Assembly: GCF_003334305.1 (NCBI RefSeq) | Contig: NZ_QOWS01000004.1 | Direction: 5' to 3' (one strand) | Length of the DNA: 64,000 bases | From: Escherichia coli | Lineage (GTDB): Bacteria > Pseudomonadota > Gammaproteobacteria > Enterobacterales > Enterobacteriaceae | Shown here: positions 9,113-9,128 of the stretch, piece by piece | Layout of the letters: the number at the start of each line of letters is the position of its first letter | Position numbering within the stretch: position 1 is the stretch's first letter | Translations under genes and position numbers: made by a program | The notes under the pieces: model-generated | The model's input: only the letters and a program-made list of their open reading frames with translations | Databases searched by the model: none | What the model was told of the DNA's origin: nothing

Positions 9113-9128
9113 TGGCACTCCACGAGCA
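9113..9128 (+). promoter_or_regulatory. Candidate sigma-54 (-24/-12) promoter element upstream of uacT
   Basis: TGGCAC-N6-GC with the canonical 12-nt GG-to-GC spacing (ctGGCACtccacgaGCat), about 70 nt upstream of the uacT ATG. Confidence 0.3.

Follow-up and report, generated by a model that had tools for sequence, protein, structure and literature searches.

The window, a stretch of 64,000 nucleotides of Escherichia coli DNA, contains the gene uacT (ygfU), which encodes a urate/proton symporter and occupies positions 9197..10645 on the plus strand according to the open reading frame list and the RefSeq annotation of a closely related strain. Its divergent neighbour, ygfT, starts at 8761 on the minus strand, and the spacer between the two genes (8762-9196), which a sequence-only reading of this DNA had described as 435 bp and AT-rich, is 435 bp long with 39% G+C, compared with 52% for the window. 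The strain is neither K-12 nor E2865 (89 SNPs in the first 12.5 kb). Within the spacer lies a candidate sigma-54 motif, CTGGCACTCCACGAGCA, at 9112-9128 on the plus strand, which can be read as CTGGCAC-TCCAC-GAGCA; base by base, T9113, G, G, C, A and C9118 are followed by TCCACGA at 9119-9125 and by G9126, C9127 and A9128. The sequence-only reading had placed this motif about 70 nt before uacT, and it is indeed found there, with its GC 70 nt 5' of the ATG at 9197. The same reading had given the gap between TGGCAC and GC as N6; counted out, the gap is N7 (TCCACGA), and since N7 is what the canonical TGGCAC-N5-TTGC contains, its statement that the -24/-12 spacing is exact holds good. The GG doublet at 9114-9115 and the GC doublet at 9126-9127 are 12 nt apart from G to G, which is the canonical sigma-54 distance.

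We treated 9112-9128, which is identical in K-12, as the candidate sigma-54 core promoter of uacT. The -24 element is perfect (CTGGCAC), while position -14 is occupied by A where nearly all bound sites have T. If the start is placed 19 nt past the motif centre, as Bonocora et al. 2015 do by convention, the predicted transcription start falls at 9138..9139 on the plus strand and would give a 5' UTR of about 58 nt, and a Shine-Dalgarno sequence (AGGAG, 9184..9188, plus strand) is found 8 nt before the uacT ATG. An in-frame ATG at 9128, part of a conserved GCATG, was considered as the uacT start and rejected: it has no Shine-Dalgarno sequence, Pluralibacter lacks it, a divergent E. coli has it in a shifted position, and its frame is lost in E. 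albertii and Citrobacter. An RNA element in the leader or spacer was also discarded, the only Rfam match being below threshold (E = 0.47).

The strength of the bare motif was assessed with a sigma-54 position weight matrix (PWM) built from the 135 high-stringency ChIP-seq sites of Bonocora et al. 2015 (PMC4591121). As a positive control, the best match of the window (14.5 bits) is CTGGCGGCAATATTGCA, at 58154-58170 on the minus strand inside yggP, which is the published intragenic site IS35. The uacT motif scored 5.16 bits, below all 135 of the bound sites, whose scores run between 6.70 and 20.5 (median 14.4). Scores of at least 5.16 bits are reached at 197 positions of the window, among which the uacT motif ranks last, against 166 ± 15 in random sequence from a first-order Markov chain. 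The penalties come from the G at matrix position 13 (-15) and the A at position 14 (-14); in the bound sites, G stands at -15 in 5 of 135, and the -14 base is T in 127, C in 7 and A in one, so that a base other than T is found there in 8/135 ChIP-bound sites, including TTGGCATGGAAAAAGCA with AAGCA. The window holds 11 copies of the string TGGCAC-N7-GC where 3.3 are expected, an excess that may stem from codon usage. Nine of the other ten copies lie within annotated genes and the tenth, at 62228, falls beyond the annotated stretch, which leaves the uacT copy as the only one that can be placed in an intergenic region. The motif scores poorly, an outcome that the sequence-only reading had itself named as speaking against a sigma-54 promoter; taken alone, it is no more than could be expected by chance, and its significance comes from the comparative evidence only.

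For this comparison, a genome collection was scanned for UacT and the ygfT-uacT spacers of E. coli (two strains), E. albertii, Citrobacter sp. R56, C. freundii M-21, Serratia oryzae and Kluyvera were aligned with MAFFT (mean column identity 55%). The divergent ygfT neighbour is present in the other E. coli, in both Citrobacter genomes, in S. oryzae and in Kluyvera, and the E. albertii contig is too short to reveal what lies beside uacT. The clearest conserved island of the alignment is AAA.CTGGCA-Y-N5-N(A/C)GCAT. In Pluralibacter gergoviae, where yqeA and yqeB flank uacT, the motif CTGGCACCGGATAAGCAT is found 60 nt before uacT. When five divergent taxa (Escherichia, Citrobacter, Serratia oryzae, Kluyvera and Pluralibacter) were anchored on CTGGCA, pairwise identity came to 26-45% for the flanks and to 67-89% within the motif. 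Invariance was confined to CTGGCA (columns 0-5), GCAT (columns 14-17) and one of the 87 flank columns; leaving out the six anchor columns, 4 of 12 motif columns are invariant against 1 of 87 in the flanks (Fisher P = 6e-4), and the 5-nt spacer inside the motif varies freely. Conservation across enterobacteria, whose lack the sequence-only reading had named as a refutation, is thus observed, with both blocks invariant between near-random flanks.

The -24/-12 blocks and their spacing are kept in 8 sequences from 7 lineages, and the arrangement is carried by only about seven independent lineages. The orthologous uacT motifs score 4.4-9.4 bits. At -14, seven of the eight sequences have A and one has C, and T is never found there, so the non-consensus -12 element is itself conserved. 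Only one of the 135 bound sites has A at -14, namely the intragenic site IS16 (TTGGCATGGAAAAAGCA, inside paaY), which ends in ...AAAAAGCA and whose AAGCA is that of the uacT promoters of Serratia, Kluyvera and Pluralibacter. Against a divergent E. coli, 68 differences were counted over 536 nt; three blocks are free of substitutions (8972-9004, 9058-9078 and 9108-9129, the last except for a C/T difference at 9118), and these coincide with the three elements proposed here, the palindrome, the CRP-like box and the core.

Published data place a sigma-54 site on the other side of the same spacer. This site, OS32 (TATGCCCGTTTATTGCA, 8808..8824, minus strand, PWM 6.70), lies 36 nt upstream of ygfT and is listed in Table 1 of Bonocora et al. 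2015 (PMC4591121) as a weak peak (FAT 3, centre 3,029,005), the only one in this spacer, assigned to the ygfT side; its motif fixes the offset between the two numberings (window = U00096.2 - 3,020,192). The centre of this peak corresponds to about position 8813 of the window, 300 bp from the uacT motif, and motifs normally fall within about ±75 bp of a peak, for which reason we discarded OS32 as a signal of the uacT motif. At the uacT motif itself (about 3,029,313), no sigma-54 ChIP-seq peak is listed in Tables 1 and 2 or in the low-stringency Table S2 of that study. MG1655, the strain used for ChIP, is identical to the window across the motif. CRP should be active during growth on glycerol. 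The ChIP cultures were grown in M9-glycerol at 30 °C (Bonocora 2015), which excludes glucose repression as the cause of the absent peak. Sigma-54 gSELEX likewise gave no peak at uacT, with peaks at ygeV/ygeW, xdhB/xdhC and ygfF/gcvP, and ygfU is not mentioned in a sigma-54 over-expression microarray study or in a bypass-sigma-54 study. The literature searched yielded neither a mapped start of uacT transcription nor data on uacT in rpoN, ygeV or crp mutants. Nor did we find a link between uacT and sigma-54 in the openly accessible papers searched, and the promoter may already have been predicted (Reitzer & Schneider 2001).

Other sigma-54-like strings were observed in the window. The second-best PWM match (14.0 bits), ATGGTACTGCACTTGCA at 55873-55889 on the plus strand, lies antisense in a nucleoside/nucleotide kinase-family gene upstream of fumE and is absent from both ChIP-seq lists. 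At 17544-17560 on the minus strand, CTGGCACGCATCGAGCA lies in sense orientation within the initial 30 nt of xerD; it shares with the uacT motif the unusual CGAGCA at -12, scores 9.2, and is absent from the ChIP-seq lists. Immediately upstream of the ygfF start, CTGGCGCGAATATTTAC (23732-23748, minus strand, 6.4 bits) has no GC at -12 and coincides with the sigma-54 gSELEX peak at ygfF/gcvP (3,043,930 in U00096.2, about window 23738). Downstream of epd, at about 52233-55309, the window carries a PPC-domain protein and an ECF transporter (S and T components and two ATPases), and this block probably accounts for the roughly 3.4 kb that are extra with respect to K-12 between the ygfT and yggP sites.

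Upstream of the core, at 9063..9078, we found the CRP-like box TGTGATTGCCTCCGCA, which starts 49 nt upstream of the uacT 17-mer and is centred at about -68. It has 2 mismatches to TGTGA-N6-TCACA, and TGTGA together with both C's of the right half is invariant across the aligned taxa. A search allowing at most 2 mismatches to this CRP core was made around the sigma-54 sites mapped in the cluster by Bonocora 2015, which are xdhA (OS29), ygeW (OS30), ygfK (OS31), ygfT (OS32) and the yqeC-internal site (IS34), with the xdhA-uacT cluster taken from a closely related complete genome (L081). The box starts 48 nt upstream of the 17-mer at xdhA and at ygfK (which has a perfect box also at 78), 49 nt at ygfT, 58 nt at ygeW and 59 nt at IS34. 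The ygfT box, TTTGAACTCAGTCGCA (8858..8873, minus strand), lies 49 nt upstream of OS32 and has invariant TG..A/TC.A columns. In 20,000 shuffles of five upstream regions, a set made without IS34, which was checked afterwards, never more than 2 promoters had a box at a shared offset, and 4 were observed. As a chance sigma-54-like string has no reason to keep the CRP-box distance that is specific to the cluster, this geometry argues against a chance match at uacT.

The spacing of 48/49 nt is kept in Citrobacter, Serratia, Kluyvera and Pluralibacter, and spacings of 48, 49 or 59 nt are found upstream of the uacT orthologues of 13 taxa, as far as Aeromonas. The Pluralibacter ygfK promoter repeats the E. 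coli layout, with the palindrome conserved. In genome L081, IS34 itself (19966-19982, minus strand) lies in yqeC and faces yqeB, and its box 59 nt upstream, TGTGACGTAATTCTCA, has a single mismatch. A CT-rich tract was observed between the box and the -24 element at uacT (9079-9111, TTCCTGTCTCTAACTCCCCTTCCTCGC) and at xdhA (L081 5709-5740, CTTCCTACCTCCCCTAACGC); the two tracts share CTCCCCT and CTAAC, and the tract is not conserved in Serratia, Kluyvera and Pluralibacter. Such tracts in sigma-54 promoters have been linked to insulation from read-through (preprint 10.1101/086108).

CRP gSELEX targets include ygfK, ygeV<>ygeW and ygfT<>ygfU (PMC3105977). The resolution of these data is the whole spacer, which holds both candidate boxes (9063-9078 and 8858-8873). 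Degradation of urate by wild-type E. coli is glucose-repressed (PMC12507026).

Further upstream, at 8990..9002, the spacer contains a palindrome-like element of 13 bp, TATCAATATGAGA, a candidate enhancer site, perhaps for YgeV, that was recognised from a shared exact 12-mer and from its conservation. Relative to the predicted starts, its centre lies at about -143 for uacT and at about -199 for ygfT, and the divergent ygfT and uacT promoters appear to share this single palindrome. The 12-mer, TATCAATATGAG (8990-9001), has an exact copy in the ygeV/ygeW spacer and its reverse complement upstream of xdhA, and the counterpart at ygfK is TATCATAATGATA. Written as T[AC]TCA-N3-TGA[GT]A, the element has 5 exact copies in 91.5 kb, against 0.15 expected and at most 2 in shuffles; all five are within the cluster and none is found in the 55 kb downstream of uacT. 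Measured from the predicted starts, the palindrome centres are 131-234 nt upstream. Every group A taxon has the palindrome upstream of uacT, as TCTCATTATGAGA in Serratia and TCTCATTGTGAGA in Kluyvera. A possible second, weaker half-palindrome, TGCCAGAATGATT (8970..8982), was noticed by eye only, 20 bp from the first, and falls in the substitution-free block 8972-9004 of the divergent E. coli. Exact copies were also observed within yqeC, about 220 nt downstream of IS34 (TCTCACATTGAGA, L081 19726-19738), and inside ygeX/dpaL (L081 13292).

The regulator encoded by ygeV has PAS, Sigma54_activat, AAA-lid and HTH_8 domains, and ygeV is the only sigma-54 activator gene encoded in the cluster. From this and the distribution of the palindrome, we infer that YgeV would bind the shared element. 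In the literature, uacT is listed in the YgeV iModulon together with xdhABC, ygeWXY, hyuA, ygfK, ssnA, ygfM, xdhD and ygfT (PMC12133099), and lower ygfT expression in a ygeV mutant is reported (PMC10602906). The sequence-only reading had called the targets of YgeV poorly defined; this is partly outdated, with sigma-54 sites now mapped at xdhA, ygeW, ygfK, yqeC and ygfT, and with the reported effect on ygfT.

The uacT orthologues of Hafnia, Edwardsiella and Aeromonas have a different -24/-12-like 17-mer, TG(C/A)GCAYGYTYTGTGCA, situated 59 or 48/49 nt from the box. It lies about 150-180 nt upstream of these orthologues (L007-L012), lacks the first G of GG and scores 0.4-6.5 bits; its dyad symmetry (GCAC/GTGC) means that it could alternatively be an operator. 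In Morganella psychrotolerans (L006), a 13.8-bit sigma-54 motif, TTGGTCTGTATTTTGCT (977-993), follows directly after a terminator-like hairpin in front of uacT, and two palindromes, TATCAATGTGATA and TATTAAATTGAGA, lie 20 bp apart about 180-200 nt upstream; no CRP-like box is present there at 48/59 nt. A search for a regulator near uacT in Hafnia, Aeromonas and Morganella, where uacT is outside the cluster, gave unrelated neighbours (kdsB, ycfP, an oxidoreductase) or genes without a family match.

Taking into consideration that the core scores poorly and that its blocks and distances are nevertheless kept across taxa, we weighed what else the motif might be. The motif could be a chance match, with uacT transcribed weakly by sigma-70 together with CRP and CTGGCA serving as a -35-like hexamer (4/6 to TTGACA). 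The low PWM score, the chance-level frequency of such scores, the lack of a sigma-54 ChIP or gSELEX signal, and a CRP box upstream in a spacer that CRP binds in vitro would all agree with this. However, a consensus scan for sigma-70 promoters (-35/-10, 16-18 nt spacing) returned 0 matches in 8700-9260, against 1.3 expected, and inspection of the alignment revealed no conserved -10 hexamer (A2/T6) 16-18 nt past CTGGCA. An accidental match also leaves unexplained both the invariant GCAT at the exact -12 position and a CRP-box distance equal to that of five verified sigma-54 sites, and we regard it as unlikely. A slightly less probable reading is that the element is bipartite and functional but drives no productive promoter, being an operator, or a docking site at which sigma-54 modulates ygfT or blocks read-through. 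Conservation shows function and not its kind, and many sigma-54 sites may never give rise to transcription, as Bonocora et al. emphasise (PMC4591121); yet the element is oriented towards uacT, whose 58-nt leader would be typical and whose Shine-Dalgarno sequence is good, keeps this orientation in Pluralibacter, where ygfT is no neighbour, lacks the dyad symmetry usual in operators, and precedes a gene listed alongside sigma-54 operons in the YgeV iModulon.

It is about equally improbable that the promoter is a true sigma-54 promoter served by an activator other than YgeV, or that the palindrome is not the site of YgeV. YgeV binding data are absent from the literature examined, the palindrome occurs upstream of uacT in Aeromonas, Hafnia and Morganella with no ygeV within the 3-kb flanks examined, and its TATCAA resembles the IHF core. 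Against this, the full IHF consensus (TTR arm) is not present in the palindrome, YgeV is the sole sigma-54 activator of the cluster, the palindrome is found in the upstream region of ygeV itself, and further exact copies of the 12-mer are confined to the cluster's sigma-54 promoters; ygfT, which shares the palindrome, is reported to depend on YgeV. A separate IHF site between enhancer and core was looked for and rejected, with only 1-mismatch matches found, one of them overlapping the palindrome.

Weighing these readings, we conclude that 9112-9128 is probably the -24/-12 core of a sigma-54-dependent uacT promoter, the divergent partner of the ygfT site at 8808-8824 (minus strand); for the parts assigned to YgeV and CRP at uacT, we lean only modestly in their favour. 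The link proposed by the sequence-only reading, a sigma-54 promoter that ties uacT to the YgeV cluster, is thus supported by conservation, by the CRP-box distance, by the shared 12-mer and by the iModulon, and is contradicted by the poor PWM score and by the lack of a ChIP-seq or gSELEX peak. According to the sigma-54 promoter reading, RpoN holoenzyme would start uacT transcription at about 9138-9139 from a core that may be deliberately weak, with a perfect -24 element but a -12 element of the form (A/G)(A/C)GCAT without T at -14. This composition of the core explains the low PWM score and is plausibly also why closed-complex occupancy would escape detection in uninduced cells. We propose that cAMP-CRP would occupy the box at 9063-9078, centred at about -68, with a presumed positive role, and that an enhancer-binding protein, most likely YgeV, would occupy the palindrome at 8990-9002 and reach the holoenzyme through DNA looping, so that open complexes would form at the uacT and ygfT promoters alike. 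Induction of urate uptake would in that case go together with that of xdhABC, ygeWXY-hyuA, ygfK-ssnA-ygfM-xdhD and ygfST, and glucose would repress it.

The candidate uacT promoter resembles the five mapped sites of the cluster in having a 17-mer, a CRP-like box at 48/49 or 58/59 nt and, further upstream, a palindrome of the form T[AC]TCA-N3-TGA[GT]A. Those five sites are bound in ChIP-seq, whereas uacT has no peak and the lowest score (5.16). Departure from consensus is also found among the mapped sites: the -12 element of ygeW reads TTGTT, and at ygfT and IS34 the GG doublet is without its first G. The defect of uacT is in its -12 element (AGC instead of TGC), and its weakness is mirrored by OS32 at ygfT, which has a perfect TTGCA at -12 and TATGCC in place of TGGCAC at -24.

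Two known systems provide a comparison. The prpBCDE operon of E. coli and Salmonella is reportedly transcribed by sigma-54 with PrpR and requires cAMP-CRP. Like the candidate uacT promoter, at which the CRP role is proposed from the box, it is a catabolic sigma-54 promoter where a pathway-specific activator and positive CRP combine inducer control with catabolite repression; it differs in that the prpB core is near consensus and is bound in ChIP (OS01). The nifH promoter of Klebsiella pneumoniae and the Pu promoter of Pseudomonas putida are sigma-54 promoters with weak cores that need architectural help, provided by IHF. They share with uacT a sub-consensus core and, both predicted in the case of uacT, low intrinsic holoenzyme occupancy and a DNA-bending protein between enhancer and core. 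In those promoters the bending protein is IHF, while uacT has no good IHF site and a CRP-like box instead.

From these comparisons we tentatively suggest, at a confidence that stops short of even, that xdhA, ygeW, the yqeC-internal site, ygfK, ygfT and uacT may form one composite class, in which sub-consensus cores, each defective elsewhere, would be rigidly coupled to a CRP box at 48/49 nt or a helical turn beyond that, and to a shared 13-bp palindrome acting as the YgeV operator, CRP taking the place of IHF. With similar tentativeness, the layout may extend to the uacT orthologues of Hafnia, Edwardsiella and Aeromonas, where the 17-mer is TGCGCAYGYTYTGTGCA. We consider this cluster-wide architecture, a by-product of the analysis, more novel than the uacT promoter itself, by which a probable sigma-54 promoter with a conserved non-consensus -12 element is added to the known set of the YgeV cluster. 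If the composite class is real, its sigma-54 regulon would have an obligate need for two inputs, catabolite status and the sensing of urate or purines. If uacT is a target of sigma-54, YgeV and CRP, the palindrome and the fixed CRP box would be concrete, mutable sequences for finding the operator and the signal of YgeV. The uacT promoter would also be a worked example of a functional sigma-54 promoter missed both by PWM scans and by ChIP-seq of uninduced cells, which would mean that lists of the sigma-54 regulon under-count weak promoters dependent on co-activators.

The cluster from ygeV to uacT is by now known to encode the pathway through which gut bacteria degrade urate anaerobically, and it bears on host urate and gout; its regulation is largely undescribed, and differences between strains in urate consumption have been attributed to regulation. 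If uacT is a target of sigma-54, YgeV and CRP, the uptake of urate and its catabolism would form a single regulon.
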